The notes under the pieces are model-generated. The model was not told the DNA's origin. It was given only the letters and a program-made list of their open reading frames with translations, and did not search any database. Positions 11,154-58,758 of a DNA stretch of 64,000 nt are shown here, in pieces. The number at the start of each line of letters is the position of its first letter. The stretch's first letter is position 1. A program made the translations under genes and the position numbers. Origin of the DNA: Acidimicrobiia bacterium (GTDB lineage Bacteria; Actinomycetota; Acidimicrobiia; Spongiisociales; SHLN01); assembly GCA_041619515.1 (NCBI GenBank), contig JBFKDW010000001.1, positions 15,129-79,128 of the forward strand. The letters run 5' to 3'.

Positions 11154-11180
11154 GATGGCTATCTCCAGTAGTTGGCTGGC

Positions 11181-11870: not shown

Positions 11871-12768
11871 GCCCGGTGGGCCCGCGCCGTGAGCCGACGA
11901 AGCGCTCCGATGTCCTTCCGCCGGCACCAGGCGTCCACCTGCCGGAGTACGCGGGTCCCCACCCTCGGCTCGGCGAAATGGGCGCTCCCGATGGCGACGG
12001 CGCTCGCTCCGGCCAGGAAGTACTCGATGACGTCTTCGCCAGTGCGAATTCCCCCGCAGCCGACGATCGGGACTTCGAGCGCAGCCGCCACTTCCCACAC
12101 GCACCGGAGCGCGATCGGCTTGAGGGGGGGCCCCGAGTATCCGCCGACTTCCCCCGATAGCGCTGGGCGTTGGGTGACGAGGTCGATCCCCATCCCCCAC
12201 ACGGTGTTCGTCAGCACCAGAAAGTCGGCGCCGGCCTCGGTTACGGCCCTGGCTGCACCGACGATGTCCTCGCTGTTTGGCGACAGCTTGGCTCCCAGCG
12301 GCAGGTCGGTCGCATCCCGGACTGCCGCGACGACCTTCCCGGCGGCGCCCGGGTCGAGGGCGAACATGGTTCCCTCCTCCAGGTTTGGGCAGGACAGGTT
12401 CACCTCCACCGCTGCGACGCCCGCGGCGGTCAAGCCCTTGGCGACGAGAGCAAACTCGGCGGGGCTGGTGCCAACTGCCGATCCCCACACCGGGACCGGC
12501 AGGGTCGACACGTCCGGCATGTTCGTTCGCCATTCGTCGATGCCGGGGTTCTGGATGCCGATTCCGTTGAGCATGCCGATTCCGGCAGGTGCGATGCGGG
12601 GTGGGGGCCGGCCCGGCCATGGCTCATGGCTGACCGACTTGGCCACCGCGGCGCCGTACACCTCGAGGGCGGCGACGTCGGCGAAGTCGTAGACCGATCC
12701 CACCGTCCCGGCCGCTGCGATCAGCGGTGATCGCAGCTCGAGCGCTCCGAGCGAAACCGTCAGGTCGG

Positions 12769-19569: not shown

Positions 19570-20592
19570 TTAGCTGCGTGAGGCGGCTACTGCGCCCAGC
19601 CCGATTCGAACTGCGTCGTCCTCGACCGCAACCACGATCGGACGGCCGATCGCCTCGAGCAGCACCATGTTGAGGCCGTCGGCATCGCGTTTCTTGTCCA
19701 GCCCGATGAGATCAAGGACACGCTCGGCATCGAACTCGATGGAGGTCGGCAGTCCGAGGTGGCGGATGATGGCAGTGACGCGGGCCGACTCGCTGAACCC
19801 GGTCCGGGCGGCGGAAACCGCACCGGCCGCGACCATCCCGATGGCGACCGCCTCGCCGTGGCTGATCCCGGTCGCCACCTCGATGGCGTGTCCGATCGTG
19901 TGGCCGTAATTGAGGATGGCGCGTCGTCCCGCCTCTCGGAAGTCTTCGGCCACCACCGTGGTCTTGACCGCCACCGCCCGATGGACTATCTCCTCCAGGT
20001 CGGCGCCGGGCCCGGCCCGTTCCAAGACCTCCACCAGGGCCGGGTCACCGATCAGCCCGGCCTTGAGCACCTCAGCCATACCCTGGGCGCGCAGCTCCTG
20101 CGGTAGCGCATCGAGCACGTCGAGATCGATCACGATGCGGGCCGGATGGGAGAAGGTGCCCACCAGGTTCTTTCCCTCCACGTTGATGCCCGTCTTGCCC
20201 CCGATGGCGGCATCCACCGCCCCCAGCAGGGTGGTGGGGCAGAACACCGCCTCGATGCCGCGCAAATAGGTGGCCGCCACAAAGCCTCCGAGATCGGTCA
20301 CCGATCCGCCGCCTATTGCCAGCAGGGTGTCGTGCCGGGTGACGCCGAGATTGTTGAGTCGCCGGTAGACGTCCTCTGCCACGGCCAGGGTCTTGGCTGC
20401 CTCACCATCGGGAACCATGATCAGTTCGACCGCCAACCCCTCGGCGCGCAGGCCTTCGGCTACGTTCCCGGCATACTCCCCCGGGGCCTGCTGACTGAGG
20501 AGCGCAACCCGGGCCCGGCCCTCACGGACGGGAAGCATCTCGCCGGCCACGGCCGCCCGCGTGATGACGATGTCCGGCCCGTTCAGATCCAT
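19570..20592 (-). CDS. aroB: 3-dehydroquinate synthase
   Basis: Contains GGGSVTDLGGFVAATYLRGI...GGKTGIN...LNYGHTIGHAIE. Confidence 0.85.
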   Translation of the reverse strand: MDLNGPDIVITRAAVAGEMLPVREGRARVALLSQQAPGEYAGNVAEGLRAEGLAVELIMVPDGEAAKTLAVAEDVYRRLNNLGVTRHDTLLAIGGGSVTDLGGFVAATYLRGIEAVFCPTTLLGAVDAAIGGKTGINVEGKNLVGTFSHPARIVIDLDVLDALPQELRAQGMAEVLKAGLIGDPALVEVLERAGPGADLEEIVHRAVAVKTTVVAEDFREAGRRAILNYGHTIGHAIEVATGISHGEAVAIGMVAAGAVSAARTGFSESARVTAIIRHLGLPTSIEFDAERVLDLIGLDKKRDADGLNMVLLEAIGRPIVVAVEDDAVRIGLGAVAASRS

Positions 20593-21077
20593 GCGCTCAC
20601 CTCTGCGGCAACCTCTGCCGGGGTGCGGCCGTCGGTGCTGACGGTGTGATGCGCAGCCCGCTCGTAGGCATTGCGGCGGCTCTCCAGCAGCTCTGCCAAG
20701 CGGGCTTCCCCGCCGCCCCCGAGAACCGGACGATCCAGTGAGCCGACCACCCGGCCGGCAAGCACGGAGGGCGGTGCCTGCAGCCAGACGACCGTTCCCG
20801 ACCGGCGCATCGCCCGACGGTTGGCTTTGCTGAGGATGGCCCCGCCTCCGGTGGAGACCACCGCTTCGCCGCCCGCAGCCAGCTCCGCGATGATGGTGGT
20901 TTCGATGGCACGAAAGGCACCTTCTCCCTCACGCTCCCACAGGTCGGGGATGCTCGTCCCGAGCCTCGCCTGCACGAGCAGGTCGACGTCGTAGAACGGC
21001 CGACCTTTCAGCACTCCGACCAAACGGCCGACGGTGGTCTTGCCCGATCCCATCATTCCGACCAGCCAGAGATTCAT
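20583..21077 (-). CDS. aroK: Shikimate kinase
   Basis: MNLWLVGMMGSGKTTVGR (P-loop) and a GGG lid. Confidence 0.85.
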   Translation of the reverse strand: MNLWLVGMMGSGKTTVGRLVGVLKGRPFYDVDLLVQARLGTSIPDLWEREGEGAFRAIETTIIAELAAGGEAVVSTGGGAILSKANRRAMRRSGTVVWLQAPPSVLAGRVVGSLDRPVLGGGGEARLAELLESRRNAYERAAHHTVSTDGRTPAEVAAEVSAWI

Positions 21078-21081
21078 CTGT

Positions 21082-22230
21082 TCAGAAGCGGGTCAACCGT
21101 TTGCGGTAATGGTCGACCGCCGCCTGCAGATCGTCGACGGTGTCGCCACCGAACTTGCGCTGAACCTCCTGCGCCAGGACGATGGCCACCATCTGCTCGG
21201 CTACCACGCCTGCGGCGGGCACGGCACATACGTCGGATCTCTCCCGGATCGCCTTTTCCGGCTCCTTCGACGTGACGTCGACCGTCTGGAGGGCGCGCAT
21301 GAGGTTTGAGAGCGGCTTCATGGCCGCCCGCACCCGGATGATTCCGCCCATGCTCATGCCACCTTCGATCCCACCCGCCCGGTTGGTGTCTCGCACGAAC
21401 CCATCCTCGAAGCGGATCTCATCATGTGCCTTCGACCCGCGGCGGGTGGCTCCGGCCAGGCCGTCCCCGATTTCGACGGCCTTGATCGCCTGGATGGACA
21501 TGAGCGCCGCCGCCAGGCGAGCATCCAGCCGGCGGTCGTAGTGGACGTGGCTCCCGAGGCCCGGCATGGCGCCGTGCGCCACAACCTCTACGACACCGCC
21601 GAGCGTGTCGCGATCGGCCTTGGCAGCCTCGATCTCGGCGATCATCGCTTCGGCGCCTGCCGCGTCGAAGGCTCGCACCGGGGACGAATCGATGGCGGGA
21701 AGATCGGCCAGGGTCGGCACCGGGCCATCGGGAGCCCGGGCGGCTCCGATCGCCACGACGTGGCTGACGACCGTGATCTCAACCGCCGCCAGGAGCTCTT
21801 TGGCGAGGCTGCCGGCCACAGTGCGGGCTGCCGTCTCGCGCGCCGAGGCCCGCTCCAGGATGTCACGGGCATCATGCGTGTCGTACTTCTGCATGCCCGC
21901 CAGGTCGGCGTGACCGGGACGGGGGGCGGTCGCCGGGCGCTGTGACTCCCCAGGGAGAGGAGACATCTCACTGCTCCATTTATCCCATTCTGTGTTCCGG
22001 ACTACCACCGCCACCGGCGACCCGAGGGTCTTGCCGAACCGAACGCCGCCGAGAATCTCCAGTTCGTCGCGTTCGAGCTTCATGCGCGGTCCGCGGCCGA
22101 ACCCGAGTCTGCGGCGAGCCAGCTCGGCGGCGATGACCTCGGGGTCGACCCGGAGGCCCGCCGGAAGGCCCTCAACGATGGTGGTGAGGCCCGGGCCGTG
22201 CGACTCGCCGGCGGTCAGAAAACGCAACAT
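21082..22230 (-). CDS. aroC: Chorismate synthase
   Basis: MLRFLTAGESHGPGLTTIVEGLPAGL...GGRSSARETA. Start at the ATG at 22230. ORF 21082..22287 is over-extended. Confidence 0.85.
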   Translation of the reverse strand: MLRFLTAGESHGPGLTTIVEGLPAGLRVDPEVIAAELARRRLGFGRGPRMKLERDELEILGGVRFGKTLGSPVAVVVRNTEWDKWSSEMSPLPGESQRPATAPRPGHADLAGMQKYDTHDARDILERASARETAARTVAGSLAKELLAAVEITVVSHVVAIGAARAPDGPVPTLADLPAIDSSPVRAFDAAGAEAMIAEIEAAKADRDTLGGVVEVVAHGAMPGLGSHVHYDRRLDARLAAALMSIQAIKAVEIGDGLAGATRRGSKAHDEIRFEDGFVRDTNRAGGIEGGMSMGGIIRVRAAMKPLSNLMRALQTVDVTSKEPEKAIRERSDVCAVPAAGVVAEQMVAIVLAQEVQRKFGGDTVDDLQAAVDHYRKRLTRF

Positions 22231-22313: not shown

Positions 22314-22856
22314 CTACTTGAGGATCTCTTCACCCACTGCAAGGGCAAACGGGCTGTCGCCGAACAAGAACGTGCCGCCCGTGTCGGTGAGGGTGACGAC
22401 CTGATAGCTGCCTGCAAACGTGTCGCCGACGCCAACCGTGTAGTCGGTTCCGGAGACGCGTACAACCGCTTGTCGCGTGCCGTCGCCGAGTGTGGTGACC
22501 GAGATCAGTGAGACCGGCGTGCCCCCCGGGTCGAAGCCGCCGTTGCCGCCGTCGCCGGTCCCATCGCCTTCCTCAGTGATGAGCGGCCGGAATGGATCGC
22601 GGGGCTGGGAGATCTGAAAGTCGTCGATCAACCGCATGCCGGGCAGGAGGTCGGCCGGCTGCTGGGAGACGATCCCCGCGTCGGCCAGCACCGTCGGCTC
22701 CAGCCGGTTGAGCGAAGATGACCCGATGAGGCTGGGAGCCACGAGCAGCCAGACGGCCGCGACCAGCAGCCCACCGACCAGGATCGAGCCGGTGCTGCTG
22801 GCAATGTGCTCTCGCAGACGAAGCAGCCGGCTGTCACGATATTCGAACTTCATCAT
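22314..22856 (-). CDS. PilP-like pilus assembly protein (N-terminal TM/signal anchor, Gly/Asp-rich linker, RDPF motif, C-terminal beta domain)
   Basis: N-terminal hydrophobic helix ILVGGLLVAAVWLLVAP, the conserved PilP-type motif RDPFRP, and a C-terminal beta-rich segment. The ATG overlaps the pilO stop (TAATG). No secretin follows; aroC is the next gene. Confidence 0.55.
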   Translation of the reverse strand: MMKFEYRDSRLLRLREHIASSTGSILVGGLLVAAVWLLVAPSLIGSSSLNRLEPTVLADAGIVSQQPADLLPGMRLIDDFQISQPRDPFRPLITEEGDGTGDGGNGGFDPGGTPVSLISVTTLGDGTRQAVVRVSGTDYTVGVGDTFAGSYQVVTLTDTGGTFLFGDSPFALAVGEEILK

Positions 22857-23446
22857 TATTCGCCGGCTCCATCGACAGGCTCGCCGGCATTTGCGACCGG
22901 GGCGCCGGCGAGATCGGATAGCGAGAAGGCGGTCGCAGTCATGGATACGGTCAAGATGTTTGTCCCGTCCTCATCCAGAGCCGAATCGATGCTGATCTGA
23001 TCGACCCGGACCAGGCGCTCGAGGTCCTCAATGGCAAAGAGAACGCTCAGTACCTTGAAATACGGTGCTTCGAAACGGATCGTCGTTGATATCTCGAAGA
23101 GGCCCTCCACGACGCTCGGAACGGGCGGGGTGGGGTTCAACGTGAGCAAGTCGACACCGGTGTCGACTGCGATGCTGTTGATGTCCTCGATGAGCGCCGC
23201 TCCGTCGGGGAAGGCGGGGATCGAGTTCTGAATCTCACTCAGCGCCAGGAGAAACTCTCCCTCCTTGGCGGCGAGCGCTTGCAGTTCGTTGCGGCGCGCC
23301 TCGAGAGTGGATTGCTCGATTTGCGCTGCCGCCTCTTGATCCTGGAAATCACTGATCTCGGTCGACTTGCCGGCCATGAACAGGAACCACCACCCGGCCG
23401 TTATCACGAGCACTCCCAGCACTCCGAAGATGAGCCCGCGCCGCAT
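22856..23446 (-). CDS. pilO: Type IV pilus inner-membrane alignment protein PilO
   Basis: Single N-terminal TM (LIFGVLGVLVITAGWWFLF), a coiled-coil region and a PilO-like periplasmic domain. Start at the ATG at 23446, overlapping the pilN stop. ORF 22856..23572 is over-extended. Confidence 0.7.
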   Translation of the reverse strand: MRRGLIFGVLGVLVITAGWWFLFMAGKSTEISDFQDQEAAAQIEQSTLEARRNELQALAAKEGEFLLALSEIQNSIPAFPDGAALIEDINSIAVDTGVDLLTLNPTPPVPSVVEGLFEISTTIRFEAPYFKVLSVLFAIEDLERLVRVDQISIDSALDEDGTNILTVSMTATAFSLSDLAGAPVANAGEPVDGAGE

Positions 23447-24069
23447 CAGGGGATCTCCGGTATTCGTTCGAACAACCTGCCGGACAGTGCGTCGGAGGTC
23501 AGACTGGTCGTCGAGCCAAACGTGACGACATCCTCCTCGGCGATCTGGCTCGCGATGATGCCGCTCGCCCACGTTCCCACCACACCGGGATAGCGGTCCG
23601 AGTCCAGGATCCGAATCCAGGCCGCCACGTCGGGCGGGGCGAATGCCGTGCCCGAAAAGGTGACCTCGCCGATGCTCGTGACGTCACCGGTGGGTGCAAC
23701 CGGGTTGGTGGTACCCGTGTAGTTGGTCACCCACACTCGATCGGGTATCAGCCTCCCGAGATCGTTGAGCAGCCGGCCCCAGCTGACGTCGTTGACGAGG
23801 GCGCTTCCCAGGAGCGTCACGCCGGCCTCGAACTCGTTGCGCACCGCCTCGGCCCCGGCCAGCGAGCTGACCTCCGCCTGGAGCTGCTGGTTGGTGGCCA
23901 GCTGAGCCTGCAGGTCGGCCTCGGCGTCGTTGACCGCCCCCTGTCGCCAGACGGCCACCGCGCCGAGCAGCAAGACATAGAGCACACCGAGGGCGAGCCA
24001 GAGGGCGAGCCGATTCCTCGCCTCGCTCGCTTTCTTCCCCGTCTGGGGTATGAGGTTGATCGTGCGCAT
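23446..24069 (-). CDS. pilN: Type IV pilus assembly protein PilN
   Basis: N-terminal INLIP motif (the PilM-binding INLLP motif), one TM helix and a coiled-coil. The ATG overlaps the pilM stop. Confidence 0.75.
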   Translation of the reverse strand: MRTINLIPQTGKKASEARNRLALWLALGVLYVLLLGAVAVWRQGAVNDAEADLQAQLATNQQLQAEVSSLAGAEAVRNEFEAGVTLLGSALVNDVSWGRLLNDLGRLIPDRVWVTNYTGTTNPVAPTGDVTSIGEVTFSGTAFAPPDVAAWIRILDSDRYPGVVGTWASGIIASQIAEEDVVTFGSTTSLTSDALSGRLFERIPEIP

Positions 24070-25160
24070 CAGCCCCCCCAGAGCGCCAGGCCGACGGGGA
24101 TGGGTATCACCGGCTGCATCGCGGAGATCTCAGCCTCGGACAGCTTGCCGGTGTTCAAGCCTTCGATGACCCGGGCGGGCTCGATCCGCGCACCGAGGGT
24201 GTCGCCGAGCCGGTTGGCGAGGTGCGGCAGCCGGGCTCCGTTGCCGGATACGATGATACGGCTGAGCTCGGCGTCATCGGACTGGCCCAGGTAGAAATTC
24301 ACCGAGCCGCGTACTTCGTCGATGAATCTCTCCGCCTGGGCATCGAGGATGGTTCGAGCTCGGTCCTCCAGCGCCGACACCGACGCGTCTCCGTCGTCGG
24401 CTGTGGGGGTGATGGCGGCGGCTTCCCCCCCAACCGGGGTCAGTCCCACCTGGCGCTTGAGGTCCTCGGCCTCTTCCCAGGTGACGTCGAGGCCGTCGAC
24501 CAGTGCGGCAGTGAAATCCTCTCCACCCTGCTGGAGCAAGCGGACAAAGCGCGGCTCCCCGGCGCGTACCAGCAACACCTGGGAGACCCCCGAGCCGATG
24601 TCGACGACCGCCGCCACGCTACCGATATCGAAATCACCGTAGAACAGGGCGCGGATGAGCCCGAAGGCTTGCAGGTCGAGGGCAATCGGCGTGATCCCGG
24701 CAGCATTGACCGCTGCGAGCAACGTTTCCACCATGTCCCGCTGCGCGGCCACGACGAGGATCGAGAGCATCGGCTCACCGTCGGGGGTGGTGAACTCCTC
24801 GATGGGGACGAAGTCCAGGAAGGTCTCCTCGACGGGGATTGGGATGTACTCCTGGACCTGGAACGGGAGTGCCTCGACCAGCTCGAGCTCACTCATGCGG
24901 GGAACGTCAACCTGGCGGACGATCACGCGTTGGTTGGCGAGGCCGAGCACGATGCGGCGCTTCGGCAGCTTGGTCTCCTTCCAGAGGCGGGAGATGGCGG
25001 CGGTCACGGCTTCGGGATCGACGATCTCGCCGGCCACCACCGCCCCGCGCTCGATGTCGACCTGGCCGATCCGGCGGATAACCGGGGGCTGTTTCCCGGT
25101 GTCGAGGGCGACGGCGCGCACACCGGTTGCGCCGATGTCCAGCCCCACGTTGACCGCCAT
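24069..25160 (-). CDS. pilM: Type IV pilus assembly ATPase-like protein PilM (actin/FtsA fold)
   Basis: MAVNVGLDIGATGVRAVAL... and an FtsA/PilM-like fold through to the C-terminus. An SD sequence GGAG lies 6 nt upstream. Confidence 0.85.
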   Translation of the reverse strand: MAVNVGLDIGATGVRAVALDTGKQPPVIRRIGQVDIERGAVVAGEIVDPEAVTAAISRLWKETKLPKRRIVLGLANQRVIVRQVDVPRMSELELVEALPFQVQEYIPIPVEETFLDFVPIEEFTTPDGEPMLSILVVAAQRDMVETLLAAVNAAGITPIALDLQAFGLIRALFYGDFDIGSVAAVVDIGSGVSQVLLVRAGEPRFVRLLQQGGEDFTAALVDGLDVTWEEAEDLKRQVGLTPVGGEAAAITPTADDGDASVSALEDRARTILDAQAERFIDEVRGSVNFYLGQSDDAELSRIIVSGNGARLPHLANRLGDTLGARIEPARVIEGLNTGKLSEAEISAMQPVIPIPVGLALWGG

Positions 25161-25193
25161 TGTTACTCCGCCTCAAGACACGAGCGCAGTGCC

Positions 25194-25207
25194 TTGTAAT
25201 TACAAGA
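25194..25207. promoter_or_regulatory. Perfect 14-bp AT-rich palindrome CTTGTAATTACAAG in the pilM upstream region (candidate operator)
   Basis: Seen in the sequence inside the only conspicuously AT-rich 100-bp stretch in the window (25161-25261). It lies about 35-47 bp upstream of the pilM ATG. A direct repeat ATTCGGG-N16-ATTCGGG lies 5 bp further upstream. Confidence 0.3.
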
Positions 25208-25261
25208 ATGTCATTCGGGAGATTAACAAACGATTCGGGCAGCGCAAGTCATAGCGGCGGC

Positions 25262-26038
25262 TCACCGGCCGAGATACCAGTCGACGAGCTGCTGCCCGAT
25301 CACCAGGGCCAGGTACGAGCCAAAGATCATGGCGGGTCCGAACGGGATCTTCGCCTTGCGGGTGGCTCTGCCGGCCAGCAGAAGGGCAATCGCGACCACC
25401 CCGCCGATGGCGATTCCGAGGGCAACGCCGGCGCCGAGCACCTCCCACGATCGATAGGTCAGGAAGAGCCCCAGGAAGAAGGCGAGCTTTACGTCACCCA
25501 GACCAAAGCCGCCGCGGGCGACGAGGGCAAGGGCGAGGAAGATCGCGAAATATAGGCTTGCCCCGGCGAGCGCCCGGCCAAAGGAAGCGAGATCTCCATC
25601 AGCGATGGCCGCCACGAGCAAGAGCGCAGCACCGACCAGCGTCGACGGATAGAGGATGCGATTCGGCAGCCGATGGACATCCAGGTCGGTGAGAACCAGC
25701 GCAAGGCCGACTCCCGCAAACCACAGGTAGGCCGGGAGCTCGGGCTCGATCCCAATAACGAGGACCGCAGACGCGAAGAGGATGGCGGCGCCCACCTCGA
25801 CGATCGGGTAGCGGACGCTGATATGGCCTCCACAGTCCCGGCAACGACCCCGCAGCAACACCCACGACAGCACGGGAATGTTGTCTCGCGGCCGGATGGC
25901 TGCCCGGCACACCGGGCAGGCGGACGGTGGTGAGACGACCGAGTGGCCGGCCGGGACCCGGTAGGCAACCACGTTGATGAACGAGCCGAAGATGAGGCCG
26001 AACAGTGCGGCCACGGCTACCGCAGGAAGGGCATCCAT
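25262..26038 (-). CDS. pilD: Prepilin peptidase (A24 family) PilD
   Basis: N-terminal zinc tetracysteine motif CPVC...CRDC, a polytopic membrane protein with catalytic Asp motifs (DLDVHRLP, GLGDVKL). Confidence 0.85.
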   Translation of the reverse strand: MDALPAVAVAALFGLIFGSFINVVAYRVPAGHSVVSPPSACPVCRAAIRPRDNIPVLSWVLLRGRCRDCGGHISVRYPIVEVGAAILFASAVLVIGIEPELPAYLWFAGVGLALVLTDLDVHRLPNRILYPSTLVGAALLLVAAIADGDLASFGRALAGASLYFAIFLALALVARGGFGLGDVKLAFFLGLFLTYRSWEVLGAGVALGIAIGGVVAIALLLAGRATRKAKIPFGPAMIFGSYLALVIGQQLVDWYLGR

Positions 26039-26066
26039 GAGGCCTCGACCCTAGTGACCGGGGGCG

Positions 26067-26543
26067 TTACCAGCCTGAAGCCGACCAGGTCCCGACGCCC
26101 GGGGGGCCGGCGGCGCTGCACGCACCGAACGGGTTCGCCGAGTGGCGGCCGAATTGGGTGCCACCGGCCGAGTTCTCCCAGATGGCGAGGAACTCACCGC
26201 GCGGGGTCCTGGCAACGAGACACACCACCTGAGCGGTGGGATCGATGGTGACGGCGACGGGGTCGAAGGTGTTGACGGCCGGGCTGGCACCGGTGACGTT
26301 GAACAAGCTCGGCTCGATCGCCGACAGCAGATCGAGATCGTCCGTGAACTGGGCTGCCCCGCCGGCGTAGTACGCCTTCTCCGTGGTGAGAGCGTTCCTG
26401 AGGTGGCTCTTGGCGGCCGAATCCTCCGCCTCCTTGCGTTGACCGAGGAAGGTCGGGATCGCAATGGCGATGAGGATCGCCACGATGAGGACGACGATCA
26501 TCAATTCGATGAGGGTGAATCCTCGGTCGTCTCTGCTCCACAT
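26067..26543 (-). CDS. pilA: Type IV major pilin paralog (class III signal peptide RG|FTLIELMIVV)
   Basis: MWSRDDRGFTLIELMIVVLIVAILIAIAIPTF..., a C-terminal Cys pair and ...SASGW. An SD sequence GAGAAGG lies upstream of the ATG at 26543. The rest of ORF 26067..26864 is an extension. Confidence 0.8.
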   Translation of the reverse strand: MWSRDDRGFTLIELMIVVLIVAILIAIAIPTFLGQRKEAEDSAAKSHLRNALTTEKAYYAGGAAQFTDDLDLLSAIEPSLFNVTGASPAVNTFDPVAVTIDPTAQVVCLVARTPRGEFLAIWENSAGGTQFGRHSANPFGACSAAGPPGVGTWSASGW

Positions 26544-26629
26544 GGCGGCGCCTTCTCGTTGACTGTACGTCGGGTTTTCGGCGCGGACCGACCGGCTCTT
26601 GAGCGATATGCGTCGCGAATCCGATGGCT

Positions 26630-26661
26630 CCCAACAACAGGAAACGGGCCCCGAAGGGCCC
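26630..26661 (-). terminator. Intrinsic terminator after the first pilin gene: GGGCCC-UUCG-GGGCCC stem-loop followed by GUUUCCUGUUGUUGG
   Basis: Seen in the sequence on the minus-strand RNA about 30 nt after the pilA1 stop. It has a GC stem, a UUCG tetraloop and a U-rich tail. Confidence 0.55.
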
Positions 26662-26688
26662 GAATCCGGTTTGCTTATCGAGCTGGGT

Positions 26689-27153
26689 TTACCAGCCGCC
26701 TGGCGTCCACGGAGCGCCGGGCTGGGCGACCGGGCAAGGCGCCGTAGTCGGAGCCGCCGCAGCTTTGTAGTAGACGGTTCCGGCAGTGGTCCCATCCCAG
26801 ACGGCGAAGTAGTCGCCGCCATCGCTCTGCTGCACGAGGCAGACAGAGACGCCACCAGCACCAATGGTCACCGTGACCGGGTCCGCACCGGTGCCGAACA
26901 GGTTCGGCTCGATGGCGGCAAGGTCGGCGGTGGTCGCCGTGAAGACCTGGTTCACGGAGAAGTAGGCCTTCTCGGTCGCCAGGGCGTTACGGACGTTGCT
27001 CTTGGCAGCGCTGTCCTGTGCGTTCTTCCGCTGACCCAGGAAGGTGGGGATGGCAATGGCGACCAGAATGGCAATAATCAGCACCACGACCATCAGCTCG
27101 ATGAGTGTGAAGCCCTCGTCCTTGTTGAGACGGGACCGCATCGCTTTGAGCAT
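26689..27153 (-). CDS. pilA: Type IV major pilin (class III signal peptide EG|FTLIELMVVV)
   Basis: MLKAMRSRLNKDEGFTLIELMVVVLIIAILVAIAIPTF..., a C-terminal Cys pair and ...TPGGW. A strong SD sequence AAGGAG lies 8 nt upstream of the ATG at 27153. Confidence 0.85.
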   Translation of the reverse strand: MLKAMRSRLNKDEGFTLIELMVVVLIIAILVAIAIPTFLGQRKNAQDSAAKSNVRNALATEKAYFSVNQVFTATTADLAAIEPNLFGTGADPVTVTIGAGGVSVCLVQQSDGGDYFAVWDGTTAGTVYYKAAAAPTTAPCPVAQPGAPWTPGGW

Positions 27154-27333
27154 CTGATGTTCTCCTTGCGAGCATCTACGGCCGAGCCTTTACCCGACCT
27201 TCGTACCCATGAGCTATCGACACGCTGGGTGACGAGTTGAGGCTTTTCCGTGGCTATTACCGGGCGCACCGACGCACTAGCGCGTCGAGCGGTGCTGCCT
27301 CGGTGGGGGCTGATGCGGCAGGTGCGGGAGCAC

Positions 27334-28554
27334 CTAGCCGACGACGTTGACCAGGTTGAACATCGGCAGGTAGAGAGCCACGAGGATGCCGCCGACCGTC
27401 AATCCCATGAAGGCGATCAGGAGCGGCTCGAGCAAGCTGGTGAGGGCGTCGACGGTGTCGTTGACCTCCTGGTCGTAGAACGACGCCACCTTCTCCAGCA
27501 TGGCGTCGACGGCGCCGGTTTCCTCGCCCACTGCGATCATCTGCACGACCATGGACGGAAACACCTTGTGCTTGGCGAGGGGCACGGCGAGCGAGTCGCC
27601 ATCCTTCACCGACTTGGCGACGTCGGCGACTGCGTCGGAAACGATCGCATTGCCGGCCACGTCCCGAACGATCTCCATCGCCTGCAGGATGGGAACTCCC
27701 GTCCGCAGCAGGACGCCGAGCGTCGAGGAAAAGCGGCTGATTGCCGTCTTGTGAACCACTCCCCCGAACACCGGCATCTTCAGCTTGGCGGCGTCCCACA
27801 CGTGCCGTCCGGCGGTCGTGTTGATCCACCGACGGAACCCCCAGACCGACGCCCCCATGAGGGGAAACACGATGAACCAGAAAGACTTCAAGAGGTCTGA
27901 GCCGCCGATGAGGATCTTCGTCGGCACCGGCAGCTCGCCCCCCGCCCCGGCGTAGAGATCCTGAAAGATCGGCACCACGAAGACGAGCATGGCGAGGACC
28001 ACGAGAGCAACCATCGAGAGCACGACGACCGGGTAGGCCATCGCCGACTTGATCTTGCTGCGTAGCGCCACCTGGTTCTCGAGGGCGGCGGCCAGCCGCA
28101 GCAGCGTGTCGTCGAGGACACCACCGGCTTCCCCGGCGCGCACCATCGACGTGTAAAGCTGGCTGAATGCTTTGGGGTGCTTCTCCAGAGCCGCCGAGAG
28201 CCCGACGCCCCGCTCGACGTCGCGCCTCACCTCTCCGATTATCCGGGCCAGCGCTTTGGACTCGGTCTGCTCCTCGAGCACCGAGAGCGACCGCAGCAGC
28301 GAGAGTCCGGCGTTGATCATGGTGGCGAACTGGCGGCTGAAGACCGCCACCTCCTTCGCCTTGACCCGGTCGCTCAGGCCGGGGATGTTGATCTCCGTCT
28401 TCAGGCCGCTCGTCTTGACCTCGTCGACCGCCAGAGGGACTGCCCCTCGTTCCCGCAGGGCCTTGACGACCGCATCCCGGGAGGAACCTTCGATCTGCCC
28501 CTCGAGGACCTTGCCGCTCTTGTCCCGGGCGCGATAGTCGAACATGGTGGCCAT
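27334..28554 (-). CDS. pilC: Type IV pilus platform protein PilC (GspF family)
   Basis: Two T2SS-F repeats and three TM segments. MATMFDYRARDKSGK...FSRQFATMINAGLSL... Confidence 0.9.
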   Translation of the reverse strand: MATMFDYRARDKSGKVLEGQIEGSSRDAVVKALRERGAVPLAVDEVKTSGLKTEINIPGLSDRVKAKEVAVFSRQFATMINAGLSLLRSLSVLEEQTESKALARIIGEVRRDVERGVGLSAALEKHPKAFSQLYTSMVRAGEAGGVLDDTLLRLAAALENQVALRSKIKSAMAYPVVVLSMVALVVLAMLVFVVPIFQDLYAGAGGELPVPTKILIGGSDLLKSFWFIVFPLMGASVWGFRRWINTTAGRHVWDAAKLKMPVFGGVVHKTAISRFSSTLGVLLRTGVPILQAMEIVRDVAGNAIVSDAVADVAKSVKDGDSLAVPLAKHKVFPSMVVQMIAVGEETGAVDAMLEKVASFYDQEVNDTVDALTSLLEPLLIAFMGLTVGGILVALYLPMFNLVNVVG

Positions 28555-30087
28555 TTATCCCCCTCCCAGCAGGTGTTTGAGACCCTCGGCGTCTGCACAA
28601 CGTTCGAATGCGAGCTCGCGGGTTATCTTCCCGCGCTGGACGAGATCCGCCAGAGCCTGGTCCATCGTCTGCATCCCGTGCTGGGATCCGGCCTGCATGG
28701 CGGAGGGGATCTGGTGCACCTTTCCGTCGCGGATCTGGTTGCGAATGGCGGCGGTGGCGATCATGACCTCGACGGCCACTATTCGGCCCTTCCCATCCTG
28801 GGTGGGGAGCAGCTGTTGGCTGACAACGGCCTGCAGGGAGCTTCCCAGCTGGACTCGCACCTGCGATTGCTGATGTGAGGGGAACACGTCGATGACACGG
28901 TCGATGGATTGCGGGGCGCTCTGGGTGTGCAGCGTTCCGAAGACGAGGTGGCCCGTTTCGGCCGCCGTCAGCGCCGCACTGATCGTCTCGAGGTCGCGCA
29001 TCTCCCCGACCAGGATGACATCGGGGTCCTGGCGTAGGACGTGCTTGAGCGCGTGATTGAAGCTGAAGGTATCCGTTCCGACCTCGCGTTGGTTGACCAC
29101 GGCCTTCTTGTGCTTGTGGAGGAACTCGATTGGATCCTCGATCGTCATGATGTGGACCGCTCGCTCCTCGTTGATGCGGTTGACGATGGCGGCGAGCGTG
29201 GTGCTCTTACCGGACCCGGTGGGGCCCGTCACCAGCACCAGTCCTCGATGCAGATTCGCCAGCGAGCCGACCACGGGAGGCATGCCGAGTTTCTCCGGGG
29301 TGACGATCTCGTTCGGGATCGCCCGGAGCACAGCACCCACCGAGTCACGCTGAAAGAACACATTCACCCGGAAGCGGCCGTGGCCCGGCACCGGGTGCGA
29401 GGCATCGAGCTCACGATTTTCCTCCAGGCGCTGACGCTGGTCGGCGGTGAGGATGCCGTAGATCATCCGGCGCAGCTCGGCCGGCATCATGATGCCGAAG
29501 TCCTCCAACGGCTGGAGACGGCCGTTGACACGGATCTGGGGCTCCGTGCCGGCCGTGAGGTGGAGGTCGGACCCGGCGTTGTCCATGAGGATCACGAGCA
29601 GATCGTTGAGATGGATCTCCTGCGAGGTCTCCACCCGGGGAGCATCGTTCTCGCTGAGCGTGAAGTAGTCGCCGAGGATGCGGTCGATGGAGCGCTTGGA
29701 CGCCAGCCCCAGCGATACCGGGCTGCCGCACGCGGTCTCGAGGGTCTCCCGCAAGTTGGCGGTGAAAGGGTCCGCGACAGCCACGACCACCCTCTCCTCC
29801 TCGAGCGCAACGGGCACCGCCACCATGCGGCGCGCGGTGTCGGCGTCGATGCGGTCGAGGGCATCCGGCTGGATGATGGTCTGCTCGAGGTTGATGTAGT
29901 CGATGCCGAGTTGCTCGGCTACCACCATCAGCAAGTCTGCGTCGCTCACGTGACCAGACGTCACGAGCGTCTTGGCGAGGGGAATGCCGCCCCGGCTCTC
30001 CTCGATGAGCAGGTCTTCGAGCACATCCCGGCTCAGGAGGCGCCGGTTCACGAGCGCCTCGCCGAGCTGTCGGCTTACTCGGCTCAT
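28555..30087 (-). CDS. pilT: PilT-family retraction ATPase with an extra ~140-aa N-terminal GspE-N1/MshEN-like domain
   Basis: Core: Walker A GPTGSGKST, Asp box, His box and the C-terminal AIRNQIRDGK (PilT AIRNLIRE motif), with no tetracysteine. The N-terminal extension LGEALVNRRLLSRDVLEDLLIEE ... LAKTLVTSGHVSDADLLMVVAEQ resembles the tandem 24-residue MshEN motifs. The ATG at 30087 overlaps the pilB stop (ATGA). Confidence 0.8.
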   Translation of the reverse strand: MSRVSRQLGEALVNRRLLSRDVLEDLLIEESRGGIPLAKTLVTSGHVSDADLLMVVAEQLGIDYINLEQTIIQPDALDRIDADTARRMVAVPVALEEERVVVAVADPFTANLRETLETACGSPVSLGLASKRSIDRILGDYFTLSENDAPRVETSQEIHLNDLLVILMDNAGSDLHLTAGTEPQIRVNGRLQPLEDFGIMMPAELRRMIYGILTADQRQRLEENRELDASHPVPGHGRFRVNVFFQRDSVGAVLRAIPNEIVTPEKLGMPPVVGSLANLHRGLVLVTGPTGSGKSTTLAAIVNRINEERAVHIMTIEDPIEFLHKHKKAVVNQREVGTDTFSFNHALKHVLRQDPDVILVGEMRDLETISAALTAAETGHLVFGTLHTQSAPQSIDRVIDVFPSHQQSQVRVQLGSSLQAVVSQQLLPTQDGKGRIVAVEVMIATAAIRNQIRDGKVHQIPSAMQAGSQHGMQTMDQALADLVQRGKITRELAFERCADAEGLKHLLGGG

Positions 30088-31748
30088 GCCACCACCCGCA
30101 TGATTTCCTCGAGAGACGTCATGCCGGAGGCCACCTTTTCCAAGCCGTCCTGCCACAGGGTCGTCATACCCTCTTCGATGGCAACGGCCTGGATCTCGTC
30201 GGAGGGGCGCCGCTCGACAGACATCCGCTGAATGTCCTCACTGACGAGCAGAACCTCGTGAAGCGCCAGGCGACCGCGATAACCGGTGTTGGCGCACGAC
30301 TGACACCCGACCGCTTCGAAGACATGCTTGGGCACGTCGAGGCCGGCAGCCTCGAACTTGTCGGCAGCGGGCGCCGCCTCCTGGCGGCACTTGTCACACA
30401 ATCGGCGCGCCAGCCGCTGAGCCAGGATGGCGTCTATCGACGATGCCACCAGATACGGCTCCACGTCCATTTCGATGAGGCGGCCGATGCTGGAAGACGA
30501 GTCATTCGTGTGCAGGGTGGAGAGCACGAGGTGGCCGGTGAGGGCGGCCTCGATCGCGATCTGCGCCGTCTCCCGGTCGCGAATCTCACCGATGAGCGCG
30601 ATGTCGGGGTCGGCGCGCAATATCGACCGTAGCGCCGAGGCAAACGTCAGGCCGGCTTTGCGGTTGACCTGGACCTGGGTGATCCCGGCCAGCCGATACT
30701 CGACCGGGTCTTCCGTCGTGATGATGTTCACTTCCGGCCGGTTGAGCACGTTGAGCGTGGCGTACAGCGTCGTGGACTTCCCAGAACCGGTCGGGCCGGT
30801 CACGAGAATGGCTCCGTAGGGCTTGGTGTAGGACGACTCGAAGCGGGCAAGGTTGTGAGCGCTGAAGCCGAGGTCGGTCAGCTCCAGCAAGATGGAGCTT
30901 CGATCCAGGATCCGAAGCACCACCTTCTCACCGTAGACCGAGGGCAGCGTCGCGACACGCAGGTCGACCTGGCGGCCCTGGACTTTGAGGCTGATACGGC
31001 CATCCTGTGGGATCCGTCGCTCGGCGATATTGATGTCCGCCATGATCTTGAGGCGGCTCACCATGGCGTTGGTTATCGAGCGGGGGGTGGTCATCGCCTC
31101 GTGCAGAACGCCGTCGATCCGGAAGCGGACCCGCAGGTCCTTCTCCCCCGGCTCGATATGGATGTCCGAGGCACGTTCGTTCATTGCCCGCGTGATGATC
31201 GTGTTCACCAGCTTGACGACCGGTGCTTCGTCGACCGAGGCTTCGATGGCGCTGAGGTCCTCGACTTCCGCTCCCTCGTCGAGCAGATCACCGAATTCCG
31301 AGACGGCATCATCGAACTGAGCCATCCTCGAAAGAGCATCCATGACCTCAGTGCGCGTGGCTACCTTGGGGCGGACATCCATGCCGGTGATGGCCCGGAT
31401 ATCGTCGATCGCCAGCACGTTGGCCGGGTCTGCCATTGCGACGATCAGGCTGCCGTCTTCGGAGAATCCGATGGGGATGGCGGCGTAGCGGCGGGCGAGG
31501 GCTTCCGGTACGAGAGCACTCGCCGAGGGATCGATGGTGACCTCGTCGAGGGCGACGAACTCCAGCCCGATATGGCGGGCAAGGGTCTTGACGAGATCGG
31601 TTTCCTTGACGAAACCCTCTTCCACGAGGATCCGCCCGAGAGGCATTCCGCTTTCGGCTTGAATCTCGGTCGCACGATCGAGATCGGCCCTGCTCAGCAG
31701 GCCTTCCTGGAGCAGCATCGTGCCGAGATGCCGCGCTTCGGTAGTCAC
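30084..31748 (-). CDS. pilB: Type IV pilus assembly (extension) ATPase PilB with N-terminal MshEN-type domain
   Basis: GspE-family core with Walker A GPTGSGKST and tetracysteine zinc motif (CDKC...CQSC). The N-terminus HLGTMLLQEGLLSRADLDRATEIQ and LGRILVEEGFVKETDLVKTLARHIG matches the tandem MshEN consensus RLGxxLLxxGLLxxxxLxxxLxxQ. Confidence 0.9.
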   Translation of the reverse strand: MTTEARHLGTMLLQEGLLSRADLDRATEIQAESGMPLGRILVEEGFVKETDLVKTLARHIGLEFVALDEVTIDPSASALVPEALARRYAAIPIGFSEDGSLIVAMADPANVLAIDDIRAITGMDVRPKVATRTEVMDALSRMAQFDDAVSEFGDLLDEGAEVEDLSAIEASVDEAPVVKLVNTIITRAMNERASDIHIEPGEKDLRVRFRIDGVLHEAMTTPRSITNAMVSRLKIMADINIAERRIPQDGRISLKVQGRQVDLRVATLPSVYGEKVVLRILDRSSILLELTDLGFSAHNLARFESSYTKPYGAILVTGPTGSGKSTTLYATLNVLNRPEVNIITTEDPVEYRLAGITQVQVNRKAGLTFASALRSILRADPDIALIGEIRDRETAQIAIEAALTGHLVLSTLHTNDSSSSIGRLIEMDVEPYLVASSIDAILAQRLARRLCDKCRQEAAPAADKFEAAGLDVPKHVFEAVGCQSCANTGYRGRLALHEVLLVSEDIQRMSVERRPSDEIQAVAIEEGMTTLWQDGLEKVASGMTSLEEIMRVVA

Positions 31749-31801: not shown

Positions 31802-32590
31802 TTAGAGATTCGACCCCGGCGAGTGGTCACGCGCAACGGCCTCTCGCATCGCCGAAAGAGAGGGGGTCACGCCGGTCCAGAGCTCGAAGGAAAGGGCCGC
31901 CTGATGCAGCAGCATTTCGATCCCTTCCACCACGGGTATGCCGAGGCCGGCTGCATGCTCGACTGCCGGAGTTGGGACCGGACCGTAAGGCATATCGAAG
32001 AGTCCGCCGGCCGATTCGAGGAGGCGATCGGGAAGGTGCCGGGCGTGCATCCCGAGCGGGGTGGCGTTGACCACCACTGCCCCATCGATCGGCTCACCCC
32101 AGCGGGCTACCGTGGCTTCGACACCGGTCCTGGTGATCAGCGCCGCGGCTGCCTCGGGGCGTCGCGCGGCCACCATGAGTGGTCGGCCCTCGAGCGCCAC
32201 CATGGCAGCGGCAGCGGCGCCGCCGGCGCCCAGGAGGAGCACCGCACCGTCGGGGAGGCCGTCCCAGGCCCGTCTGATCGCTTCGACATCGGTCGACTCT
32301 CCAATAACGACGCCGTCGGACACGATGAGGGTGTTGACGCTGGCGGCCCGATCGGCCTCAGGCCCGACGACGTCGACCAGGCGGGAGGCCAGCGCCTTGT
32401 GGGGCATGGTGACGTTGGCGCCATCGAGCCCACCGCGCCGCAGGTCGGCGACGGCGGCCTCCATCCCGGCCGCATCGGTTCGGCGTGCCACGTACGATCC
32501 ATCGACGCCGGCCGCTCGCAGCGCGGCGGTGTGCAGCCGTGGCGACAGGCTGTGTGACACCGGGTCACCGAGCAGCGCGAGCTTCAGCAT
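31802..32590 (-). CDS. aroE: Shikimate dehydrogenase
   Basis: Contains LGDPVSHSLSPRLH...NVTMPHK...LLLGAGGAAAAA, an AroE. Confidence 0.85.
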   Translation of the reverse strand: MLKLALLGDPVSHSLSPRLHTAALRAAGVDGSYVARRTDAAGMEAAVADLRRGGLDGANVTMPHKALASRLVDVVGPEADRAASVNTLIVSDGVVIGESTDVEAIRRAWDGLPDGAVLLLGAGGAAAAAMVALEGRPLMVAARRPEAAAALITRTGVEATVARWGEPIDGAVVVNATPLGMHARHLPDRLLESAGGLFDMPYGPVPTPAVEHAAGLGIPVVEGIEMLLHQAALSFELWTGVTPSLSAMREAVARDHSPGSNL

Positions 32591-42063: not shown

Positions 42064-43632
42064 ATGAAGTGCGCATCACCGTACCCGAAACTGAATGACG
42101 AACGTGGGTTCGGCCTCATCGAGGCCGTGGTCGCCACTGCGCTGTTTCTCATTCTGTTGGTCATCTCGATCGGACCCATCATGTCGTCGCTCGACCGCCT
42201 CGACACCGCCCGTTTGACGACCGAGGCCGAGAAGCTGGGCGAAGCCCGACTCGAATCTATTCGCGCGCTCGACTTCGACGACGTGGGCCTCACCTTCGGC
42301 AACCCGGCCGGCGTCATCGATCCCTCGATCACCATCACCGGCGACACCGATTGGGAGATCACCACGGACATCCAGTGGGAAGGCGCCATCAACGGGACCG
42401 ACGAGGTCAACTACAAGACGGTCGAGATCGTCGTCACCCATCCCAGCGGAGCGATCGACCCCGTCCGATTCAGCAGCATCGTCTCACCCGACCGGCTCAG
42501 CGACTCCAGCAACAAGGCAACGGTGACGGTGGACCTCACGCTCATGGAGCCGACTCCGTCCGGAGTGACCCCTCCCAAGGTGTTCCTCGTCAAATCGGAT
42601 GGGGCGGGCAACGCCAACGGCTCGGTGTTCCCTCTGGCCGGTGCCACGACCACCCAGTGGGTCTATCCCCTTCTGAATCCGACCGATCCCAACGTCGGCG
42701 ATCCCAATTACGAGATGGTCATGCGGTTGGGGACCGAACTCGACGACATCGACAGCGATGGTTGGTACATCGCCGGCGAAGCCCTGACCAGCGGCGCCGA
42801 TCGATTCCGGCTCTTCCCGGCCGAGATCAAGAACGTGACCCTACCTGTCTACCGGCCGGCTCAGCTGAAGGTCGACGTGACCGACGTCGACACGGGACTG
42901 CTCATCCCAAATGCCTCGCTGACGCTGGATAACGGCGTGCAGTCCGAGACTTTCACTTCCACCGACGGGACCTTCTTCATCGAAAGCGCGTTTGGCTACC
43001 CCCTGGTGCCGGACACCTACGACCTGACCGTGGAGGCCTTCAGCTACGCATCGGAGACCCGCAGCTCGGTGGTCATCCCCGCCGCCTATCCTGACCCGCT
43101 TCATACCGAATCATTCGCGCTCGAGTTCCGGCCTACCGTCCCGGTGATCTTCACTATCGCCGACACCGACGGTTGGCCGATTCCGCTCGCAACCATTTCG
43201 GTCGTGGGCCTCGGCGAGGTCACCACCGACGAGTACGGGCAGGCCACGATGGCGACTCCGGTCGGCACCCGAAGCTGGCCGGCCAATATCACGTCGCCGG
43301 CAGGCCACAAGACCGCCAACATCCCCTTCGACTTCGATACGGGCACCCTGTATGTGGAGCTTGGGGTTCCAAGCTCGTCACACCGGCTGGTGCACTTCTT
43401 CAACGGATCCGGCGACCACTGGGGAGCCAAGGAGACGTCCGGCAGCGAGCCGTATTCGCACATCGAGCCCGATTTCAACGGAAACGGGACGGCGGTGGTC
43501 TACGCCAACAACACCCGATGGGATTTCGGGCTCATCTGCTCGGACGACAGCGTCGAGTGGGAGTGGACGAACGTCCGGGTTCGCTCCCAGACCTCGATCC
43601 TCTCGGTCGACGCCGGTGGTGCTTCGTGCTGA
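42064..43632 (+). CDS. Large prepilin-type minor pilin (class III signal peptide ERG|FGLIEAVVA; 522 aa) with extended C-terminal domains
   Basis: The N-terminus MKCASPYPKLNDERGFGLIEAVVATALFLILLVISIG is a prepilin cleavage/methylation motif with Glu at +5. The long beta-rich C-terminal region has no recognisable enzyme motif. Confidence 0.7.
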   Translation: MKCASPYPKLNDERGFGLIEAVVATALFLILLVISIGPIMSSLDRLDTARLTTEAEKLGEARLESIRALDFDDVGLTFGNPAGVIDPSITITGDTDWEITTDIQWEGAINGTDEVNYKTVEIVVTHPSGAIDPVRFSSIVSPDRLSDSSNKATVTVDLTLMEPTPSGVTPPKVFLVKSDGAGNANGSVFPLAGATTTQWVYPLLNPTDPNVGDPNYEMVMRLGTELDDIDSDGWYIAGEALTSGADRFRLFPAEIKNVTLPVYRPAQLKVDVTDVDTGLLIPNASLTLDNGVQSETFTSTDGTFFIESAFGYPLVPDTYDLTVEAFSYASETRSSVVIPAAYPDPLHTESFALEFRPTVPVIFTIADTDGWPIPLATISVVGLGEVTTDEYGQATMATPVGTRSWPANITSPAGHKTANIPFDFDTGTLYVELGVPSSSHRLVHFFNGSGDHWGAKETSGSEPYSHIEPDFNGNGTAVVYANNTRWDFGLICSDDSVEWEWTNVRVRSQTSILSVDAGGASC

Positions 43633-55716: not shown

Positions 55717-55828
55717 ATGTTTGGGAGCTTAGGCGAGCAGTGCGACACCGCCAAGGAACCGCCCCACGCGATAGCCGCGGCCGGGATGTCGGGCCTCGCT
55801 GAATTAGCTCTCAACATGACCACTCTGG

Positions 55829-57825: not shown

Positions 57826-57828
57826 CGG

Positions 57829-58710: not shown

Positions 58711-58758
58711 ACACCGAGTGTAGTAGTAGCCCCGTCATCCACACGGGGAACCGAGCGG

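Follow-up and report, generated by a model that had tools for sequence, protein, structure and literature searches.

A predicted retractile type IVa pilus cluster with a PilP/GspC-like subunit and no detected secretin inside an aro operon of uncultured Acidimicrobiia

The DNA analyzed here (the window) is a stretch of 64,000 nucleotides from an Acidimicrobiia bacterium (contig JBFKDW010000001.1). Ten open reading frames (ORFs), all on the minus strand at 22314-31748, encode the components of a type IV pilus (T4P) and are flanked by aroE and by aroC-aroK-aroB; an initial annotation had claimed ten T4P genes on one strand in this interval, and all ten are present. The locus is likely to specify a functional, retractile type IVa pilus (T4aP) machine of uncultured Acidimicrobiia, inherited vertically inside the aroE...aroC-aroK-aroB housekeeping operon. 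The genes and features of the cluster and its immediate flanks, listed from the aroE side, are:

31802-32590, minus strand: aroE, shikimate dehydrogenase (Pfam Shikimate_dh_N and SDH_C), the upstream flank of the pil cluster
30084-31748, minus strand: pilB, extension ATPase with an N-terminal MshEN domain (T2SSE 466 bits, MshEN 77.6 bits)
28555-30087, minus strand: pilT, retraction ATPase, 510 aa (TIGR01420 480 bits against a cutoff of 319; MshEN 50 bits)
27334-28554, minus strand: pilC, platform protein (T2SSF twice, 219 bits)
26689-27153, minus strand: pilA1, probable major pilin (N_methyl 34.9 bits; TIGR02532 31.6 bits)
26645-26662, minus strand: GC-rich hairpin of 7 G-C pairs with a TTCG loop, followed by TTTCCTGTTG, directly past the pilA1 stop
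26067-26543, minus strand: pilA2, second pilin paralog, 158 aa (N_methyl 36.6 bits)
25262-26038, minus strand: pilD, prepilin peptidase with an N-terminal Cys-rich domain (A24_N_bact 112 bits, Peptidase_A24 41.8 bits)
24069-25160, minus strand: pilM, cytoplasmic actin-like component (PilM_2 139 bits; TIGR01175 191.8 bits against a cutoff of 133)
23446-24069, minus strand: pilN, bitopic (PF05137 26.6 bits against a cutoff of 22.8)
22856-23446, minus strand: pilO, bitopic, 196 aa (PF04350 41.8 bits against 22; T2SSM_b 32; GspM model 47)
22314-22856, minus strand: PilP/GspC-like gene, 180 aa (predicted N-terminal membrane helix, disordered linker and C-terminal HR-type β-sandwich, aa 112-180)
21082-22230, minus strand: aroC, chorismate synthase, 382 aa (Chorismate_synt 376 bits), 83 nt downstream of the PilP-like gene
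20583-21077, minus strand: aroK (Pfam SKI)
19570-20592, minus strand: aroB (Pfam DHQ_synthase), then efp (EFP) and nusB (NusB)

All ten pil ORFs are intact, and their GC content at third codon positions (GC3, 0.77-0.89) is of the coding type in a window of high overall GC (about 0.63-0.70). Housekeeping genes continue on the minus strand on both sides, with aroK, aroB, efp, nusB and a pyrC-like amidohydrolase gene beyond aroC and yceG/mltG, ruvX and alaS beyond aroE (all by Pfam). The ORF list supplied with the DNA was too generous for three genes, pilT, pilA2 and pilO: the true start of pilT is the ATG at 30087, which replaces a 533-aa ORF by a product identical to one on record, and the lengths of pilA2, pilO and also aroC (start placed at 22230) follow gene calls on identical metagenome contigs. 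Contigs identical to the window occur in the sequencing runs SRR292573xx-SRR292575xx. The genes had been described as separated by gaps of 0-50 nt with overlapping stops and starts. The overlaps are indeed there: pilB and pilT share an ATGA, each junction from pilM through pilN and pilO to the PilP-like gene overlaps by 1 nt (TGATG or TAATG), and pilT and pilC abut with a 0-nt gap. The range of gaps was too narrow, however, as pilC-pilA1, pilA1-pilA2 and pilD-pilM are separated by 180, 145 and 101 nt; the remaining gaps are 83 nt (PilP-like gene to aroC), 53 nt (aroE-pilB) and 28 nt (pilA2-pilD). The stop/start overlaps point to translational coupling at pilB/pilT, pilM/pilN, pilN/pilO and pilO/PilP-like gene. 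Internal promoters are probably present within the cluster; promoter and terminator scans of it returned no more sites than the chance level expected from shuffled sequence. By its position, the hairpin after pilA1 may be an attenuator or terminator, and an Rfam scan of the cluster returned neither a cyclic di-GMP (c-di-GMP) riboswitch nor another RNA element.

Proteins were assigned to families with Pfam and NCBIfam (TIGR/NF) models at their curated cutoffs, and nine of the ten proposed T4P identities held; the tenth, the pilP-like gene, matched no model in either collection. The prepilin peptidase, extension ATPase and platform protein of a T4aP are present (PilD, PilB and PilC by Pfam). PilM, PilN and PilO have been described as T4aP-specific components (Pelicic 2019, citing Denise 2019; PMC6916266), and all three lie over their cutoffs here (TIGR01175, PF05137 and PF04350). 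The TIGR01420 match of PilT, the retraction ATPase of T4aP, spans its C-terminal 340 aa, and the sequence contains the AIRNQIRD motif. A Walker A box and the tetracysteine CxxC...CxxC are recognizable in PilB, and the best NCBIfam matches of PilC and PilA are to Thermus and Myxococcus types. The PilN N-terminus, MRTINLIPQ, carries an INLLP-type motif, which in diderm systems binds PilM and which is found in 65 of 76 relatives. Both pilins possess a class III signal peptide (G-1, F+1, E+5) and score above the TIGR02532 cutoff. In pilA1, which is preceded by a Shine-Dalgarno sequence (AAGGAG, 8 nt upstream), the leader is MLKAMRSRLNKDEG followed by FTLIELM (DEG/FTLIELM at the junction) and two Cys lie close to the C-terminus; pilA2 has the leader MWSRDDRG, likewise followed by FTLIELM. 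The pilA1 pilin is present in all relatives, and pilA2 in only a subset.

The initial annotation had called pilT extended. The N-terminal extension, of about 175 aa, is a GSPII/MshEN-type domain, and it recurs in 41 related loci. We compared both ATPases with the c-di-GMP-binding reference motif, two tandem 24-residue copies of RLGxx(L/V/I)(L/V/I)xxG(L/V/I)(L/V/I)xxxxLxxxLxxQ. PilB carries both copies with G3 and G10 conserved and with H or P at position 1, passes the motif model NF053729 (56.9 bits against a cutoff of 38), and retains the motif glycines in 27-33 of 34 relatives. In PilT, position 10 of motif 1 is R, H or K rather than G in 40 of 41 sequences, and position 3 of motif 2 is A or P rather than G in 37 of 41. 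In MshEN it is the backbone amides of the position-3 glycines that bind guanine (PMC11731258); it is therefore uncertain whether PilT binds c-di-GMP, given that a guanine-binding motif glycine is replaced and the NF053729 cutoff is missed (32.8 bits). Judged by its motifs, the PilT N-domain appears to be a conserved paralog of MshEN with an altered site. No description of a PilT-family ATPase with an MshEN domain was found in the papers searched, which does not in itself prove newness, and a word-indexed homology search with the N-domain alone gave 2 matches and is uninformative on its distribution. In two relatives (L020 and L065) the N-terminal motifs are missing from the PilT reading frame, which may be due to a frameshift, misassembly or genuine truncation, and two (L018 and L065) have two pilB-like matches in tandem. 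Elsewhere in the window, a response-regulator receiver fused to GGDEF (diguanylate cyclase; 2704-3798, minus strand) is a possible source of c-di-GMP for the MshEN domain of PilB.

The product of the tenth gene, which lies at the aroC end of the cluster, has named database homologs that are all "hypothetical protein" from Acidimicrobiia metagenome-assembled genomes (MAGs). An alignment of 46 homologs shows a hydrophobic segment at the N-terminus, then a linker rich in Gly and Pro that is variable apart from the invariant motif SQPRDPFRPLI, and finally a conserved C-terminal domain. In the AlphaFold2 model, a membrane helix (aa 8-44) and a disordered linker precede a β-sandwich (112-180) with a predicted local distance difference test score (pLDDT) above 90. 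The best structural match is GspC, and the solved HR domains of GspC, PilP and PulC are among the top matches. A sensitive profile search returned 1173 family representatives at E<=1e-3; among 150 aligned family sequences (the window protein and its top 149 matches), 7 match Pfam T2SSB and 1 matches PF04351 (E 0.003). Every one of the 80 relatives has the RDPF motif, and RDPFxP is shared by HofP, which is the E. coli equivalent of PilP. Like PilP, the protein combines a disordered N-terminal arm with a C-terminal HR β-sandwich and is encoded directly after pilO, with a TAATG overlap and in a position kept in 80 loci. The combination of membrane anchor and HR domain is that of GspC, but the protein ends at the HR domain, and neither the C-terminal PDZ or coiled-coil domain of GspC nor its type II secretion system (T2SS) context (GspD, GspG-K, GspL) is present. 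There is no Cys, and so no lipobox, and 66 of 80 relatives have no Cys upstream of the motif; as modeled, the anchor is a GspC-like membrane helix rather than a lipobox. By its predicted fold, gene position and domain plan, the tenth product is thus assigned as an HR-domain protein of the PilP/GspC class; its membership in Pfam PilP is not demonstrable. In the distant relative L088 (10001-19285), the PilP-like protein is 310 aa long with two tandem HR domains.

The resemblance to GspC raises the alternative of a T2SS-like or other non-retractile pseudopilus system, with which the T2SSB matches within the family and the matches of PilO to GspM, PilC to GspF (400 bits) and PilB to GspE (603 bits) would agree. 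We judge this to be very unlikely: pilB and pilC are translationally coupled to a genuine pilT, PilM and PilN have a gene each in place of a fused GspL, and the pilins, 140-150 aa with a disulfide-type C-terminus, reach only 39 bits with the GspG model against its cutoff of 89. The absence of a PDZ or coiled-coil tail from the GspC-like protein and the lack of a secretin argue in the same direction, for a T4aP.

That lack was examined in the window and in the related loci (1.3 Mb, with flanks of about 10 kb). Pfam detected no Secretin domain in any sizeable ORF of the window, and tblastn with E. coli HofQ against the window and all loci gave nothing better than E 0.03. The statement that PilQ is missing and aroC comes directly next is borne out: no secretin gene lies between, and no more than 300 nt separate the PilP-like gene from the aroC start, both in the window and in 71 of the 76 related loci in which the distance could be measured. 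A secretin is not required in monoderm T4aP, and cultured Acidimicrobiia are described as Gram-positive. Genome surveys place the T4aP of Actinobacteria in monoderms, from which the secretin is absent (Denise 2019, PMC6668835), and the monoderm envelope and genome-wide absence of a secretin assumed here rest on that literature. If these bacteria instead possessed an outer layer, with a gene for a secretin or a similar channel at another place in the genome, the PilP-like protein would link PilN and PilO to that channel. The solved HR domains that it resembles all work with a secretin (PMC4471445), the INLLP-type PilN motif and the Thermus- and Myxococcus-type PilC and PilA matches are further diderm-like traits, and the search was confined to the DNA described above. 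Nevertheless, this arrangement is improbable, as diderm pilQ normally lies directly past pilP (hofP-hofQ in E. coli), where aroC is found here, and as both the searches and the surveys speak for a secretin-less machine in a Gram-positive class.

The conservation of the locus was assessed by scanning one genome per species in GTDB with the family alignment, which returned 89 loci, of which 80 were kept. Their labels are mostly Acidimicrobiia or Acidimicrobiaceae, with others given as Actinomycetota, Actinomycetes or unclassified bacterium and two as "Gammaproteobacteria". Wherever the contig reaches, tblastn with the window proteins over these 80 loci recovers the order (mltG)-aroE-pilB-pilT-pilC-pilA(1-2)-pilD-pilM-pilN-pilO-pilP-like-aroC-(aroK)-aroB-efp-nusB, with aroE upstream of pilB in every flank long enough. 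The comparison of the aroE...aroC interval in relatives, proposed as a check of the initial annotation, thus found the gene order kept in 80 Acidimicrobiia species representatives. The arrangement is not due to chance: 80 independent genomes, each from a different species, share the order. PilP-like identity among the syntenic relatives falls to 34%, and the 80 species, at identities of 34-81%, have retained motifs and catalytic signatures. The class-wide synteny and motif conservation therefore suggest an old, vertically inherited feature of the class and not a recent insertion. Recent horizontal acquisition was considered and rejected, given that GC dips only slightly (0.63-0.66 against 0.67-0.68) and that synteny is class-wide.

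Another explanation of this persistence, that the genes are a decaying relic retained only through their position inside an essential operon, is hardly credible. A place inside a housekeeping operon could delay the loss of genes, and aroC, aroK and aroB have been lost or moved in four relatives, while the PilT N-terminus appears truncated in the two mentioned above. In the window, however, ten ORFs are intact with high GC3 and have retained their coupled start/stop overlaps, and the signatures conserved among such divergent species argue for a working pilus machine.

The classical order cited for comparison, hofMNOPQ-aroK-aroB, is present on one strand in E. coli K-12, and the Acidimicrobiia order pilM-N-O-P-aroC-aroK-aroB is the E. 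coli arrangement minus the secretin and plus aroC. A linkage shared by two distant phyla and conserved class-wide is consistent with an ancient pil-aro association. It is not obligatory, because in four Acidimicrobiia species (L026, L028, L055 and L057) efp directly follows the PilP-like gene with no aroC, aroK or aroB between them. We take it that Streptomyces and Mycobacterium carry an A24 peptidase gene between aroE and aroC, which was not used as evidence; a literature search for a prepilin-peptidase relic between these genes in other Actinobacteria found nothing relevant. Two MAGs labeled "uncultured Gammaproteobacteria bacterium" (L008 and L015) have an Acidimicrobiia-type locus with PilP-like identities of 61-73%, and their contigs are probably mis-binned or mislabeled. 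One PilP-like family member is labeled Halobacteriales archaeon and lies on a 1.8-kb contig. Outside the class, the cultured Miltoncostaea oceani (Thermoleophilia; L089) carries pil genes at 781-809 kb of an 816-kb megaplasmid (NZ_CP064357.1), annotated by the Prokaryotic Genome Annotation Pipeline (PGAP) as PilM (512 aa, probably PilN-fused), PilO, a GspE-family ATPase, a PilT of ordinary length (397 aa) and PilC; these have no aro genes linked to them, and the annotation includes no PilP-like gene.

Three further pilin-like genes, overlooked in the initial annotation, overlap one another and lie on the opposite strand 10 kb from the pil cluster:

42064-43632, plus strand: large pilin-like protein, 522 aa, leader MKCASPYPKLNDERG followed by FGLIEAV (DERG/FGLIEAV at the junction; N_methyl 21.1 bits against a cutoff of 21.2, CarboxypepD_reg 45.5 bits)
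43626-44264, plus strand: small minor pilin, 212 aa, leader VLRRLRSEAG followed by FTIVEAS (N_methyl 22.1 bits against a cutoff of 21.2)
44254-45846, plus strand: large pilin-like protein without Glu5, 530 aa, EDSG followed by VALITVIMG, with a predicted β-helix module (candidate tip subunit of the ComZ/GspK class)

The 530-aa protein is ComZ/tapirin/GspK-like by predicted fold, and it shares with ComZ/GspK tip pilins an N-terminal pilin helix without Glu5 and an inserted large domain. On the 1.45-Mb contig of L088, two pilin-like triplets lie between the PilP-like gene and aroC, each comprising a large CarboxypepD_reg pilin, a pilin of about 200 aa and a large Glu5-less pilin-like protein. 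The window triplet has the same architecture, and the L088 CarboxypepD_reg counterpart adjoins the PilP-like gene. Judged by architecture and fold, the window triplet probably supplies this machine with its minor pilins for priming and for the tip. The pilD region of L088 is apparently reduced to a 101-aa fragment beside an HTH_17 gene.

A ComZ-like tip would bind DNA that PilT-driven retraction pulls to the membrane, which would make this mainly a DNA-uptake (competence) pilus. The E. coli hofMNOPQ genes, of the same arrangement, are annotated "DNA utilization" and PilT is present, but no comEA, comEC or dprA was found among the window ORFs scanned and the tip-protein model is of medium confidence; we hold competence as the main function to be possible, though on the unlikely side. 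It concerns the biological role only and is compatible with the T4aP machine.

A number of observations count against a functional T4aP machine with these components, and they are set out together here. All 80 retained relatives are MAGs. PilB (624 bits with TIGR02538, cutoff 675) and PilC (431 bits with its best NCBIfam match, Thermus-type PilC, cutoff 700) miss the equivalog cutoffs, and their GspE and GspF scores are nearly as high. Two of the motif glycines are missing from the PilT N-domain, which stays under the cutoff of the c-di-GMP motif model. For the tenth product, neither Pfam, including PilP PF04351, nor NCBIfam gives a match, and the family profile searched against Protein Data Bank (PDB) sequences returned only a spurious TruD match; sequence-level homology to PilP is not claimed, since hhalign against E. 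coli HofP covers only a 9-residue motif at 7% probability. To our knowledge, all HR domains characterized to date bind to the N0 domain of a secretin, and no such partner was found here; the secretin search covered the window and related loci (1.3 Mb), not whole genomes. The model of the 530-aa tip candidate is of medium confidence only (pLDDT 70, 13 sequences), and a tblastn search of all loci, L088 included, with the three minor-pilin proteins detected no similarity.

Beyond the pilus genes, the minus-strand region at 57265-61881 encodes pdxT, pdxS, a DUF3048 protein and an acyltransferase of the Lip_A_acyltrans family. In Actinobacteria, this family presumably includes the phosphatidylinositol mannoside (PIM) acyltransferase PatA, and the window is similar in gene order to what we take to be the mycobacterial nusB...alaS...relA...ruvABC...pdxST region; acyltransferase family and gene order fit an actinobacterial origin. 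A flavin mononucleotide (FMN) riboswitch (2515-2632, minus strand; Rfam RF00050, 112 bits) overlaps the 5' end of a ribD-like stop-to-stop ORF (1407-2591) and presumably lies just upstream of the true start, an ordinary arrangement. Three plus-strand ORFs (11172-12689, 2-1423 and 55820-56497) have coding-type GC3 and no Pfam match, and are genes or opposite-strand shadows.

From the gene identities, folds, motifs, synteny and conservation observed at the locus, we infer expression and piliation. PilD would cleave the prepilins PilA1 and PilA2 at the G/F junction and probably N-methylate them, and assembly would take place on the PilC platform, powered by PilB, whose MshEN domain keeps the c-di-GMP-binding signature and may place extension under c-di-GMP control. 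PilM, PilN and PilO would form a scaffold at the cytoplasmic membrane that holds PilC, with PilM attached to PilN at the INLLP-type N-terminus of the latter. The fourth, membrane-anchored scaffold subunit, with its RDPFxP linker and HR β-sandwich, would be the counterpart of PilP or of the HR region of GspC; with no secretin, it may stabilize PilN-PilO, form an extracytoplasmic collar that guides the fiber through the wall, or both. PilT would retract the fiber, its divergent MshEN-like N-domain being a likely regulatory input. The three pilin-like proteins encoded 10 kb away would probably prime and cap the fiber, and the ComZ/tapirin-like β-helix module of one tip protein would serve as an adhesin or DNA receptor, so that the pilus may be used in adhesion, twitching or DNA uptake.

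More tentatively, the HR-domain subunit may have a secretin-independent role in the T4aP core, as a third member of the PilN-PilO ring, in a machine that is a diderm-type intermediate minus only the secretin and in which PilT is regulated directly through its MshEN-like domain. A diderm-type T4aP lacking only the secretin is suggested by the HR-domain subunit, the INLLP motif of PilN and the Thermus- and Myxococcus-type PilC and PilA matches.

T4aP gene sets in Actinobacteria were predicted earlier by genome surveys (Denise 2019, PMC6668835; PMC6916266), and PGAP already annotates T4aP genes in Miltoncostaea. Experimental work on actinobacterial pili concerns Tad/Flp pili only (Pelicic 2019, PMC6916266), in agreement with the earlier remark that Tad/Flp is the documented type and T4aP poorly characterized, to which the existing predictions should be added. 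The searchable text of the Denise 2019 supplements has no entries for Acidimicrobiia, Rubrobacter or Conexibacter, and a literature search for Acidimicrobiia pili found nothing relevant. The machine itself is of a known type, and its departures are a PilP/GspC-type subunit conserved where no secretin was found and, second to that, a PilT with an MshEN-like domain. Reviews have noted that PilP and PilQ are jointly absent from Gram-positives and have argued from this that PilP is a mere secretin linker (PMC4471445; PMC6916266). An actinobacterial class that keeps a PilP/GspC-like subunit without a secretin in the DNA examined offers a natural counter-example to a linker-only PilP, and Acidimicrobiia would let the HR-domain subunit be tested as part of the assembly core. 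The MshEN-like domain of PilT suggests that retraction, and not extension alone, may be controlled by a second messenger or a partner protein. PilP/GspC-like is a name for more than 1000 representative "hypothetical proteins" (E<=1e-3), and abundant marine and sediment Acidimicrobiia are genetically equipped for retractile pili and thereby for adhesion, twitching or DNA uptake.

Compared with the diderm T4aP of P. aeruginosa, N. meningitidis, M. xanthus and T. thermophilus, the Acidimicrobiia cluster has in common the core PilA, B, C, D, M, N, O and T, a PilP-type HR subunit encoded directly past pilO, the INLLP-type PilN N-terminus and pilin leaders of 8-14 residues, and it shares with E. coli hofMNOPQ the linkage to aroK-aroB. 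It differs in that no PilQ secretin, pilotin or TsaP was found, the PilP-like protein is on a membrane helix rather than a lipid anchor and has no Pfam PilP match, PilT has an MshEN-like domain, the core genes form one cluster, and aroC precedes aroK. Like the Firmicutes T4aP of S. sanguinis, C. perfringens and C. difficile, the system is secretin-less and clustered, with PilM/N/O/T and large modular pilins (PMC6916266), and its two similar candidate major pilins recall PilE1/PilE2 of S. sanguinis (PMC6916266). In contrast to the Firmicutes systems, from which PilP is reported absent (PMC6916266; PMC4471445), a PilP/GspC-like protein is conserved here, and PilN carries its INLLP-type motif at the N-terminus, as in diderms.

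With GspC of the T2SS and with GspB, the PilP-like protein shares a bitopic plan of N-terminal membrane helix, linker and HR domain, and some family members match T2SSB; unlike GspC, it has no PDZ or coiled-coil region past the HR domain, no T2SS context or secretin partner, and the pilP position after pilO. PilB resembles the MshEN receptors V. cholerae MshE, C. perfringens PilB2 and T. thermophilus PilF (GSPII) in its tandem motifs with the key glycines, whereas the presence of the domain also on a PilT-family retraction ATPase, with two motif glycines replaced, sets the Acidimicrobiia apart from known MshEN receptors. The 530-aa candidate tip protein shows no detected sequence similarity to T. 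thermophilus ComZ, GspK-class tips or Caldicellulosiruptor tapirins, and it is encoded in a three-gene operon of its own.

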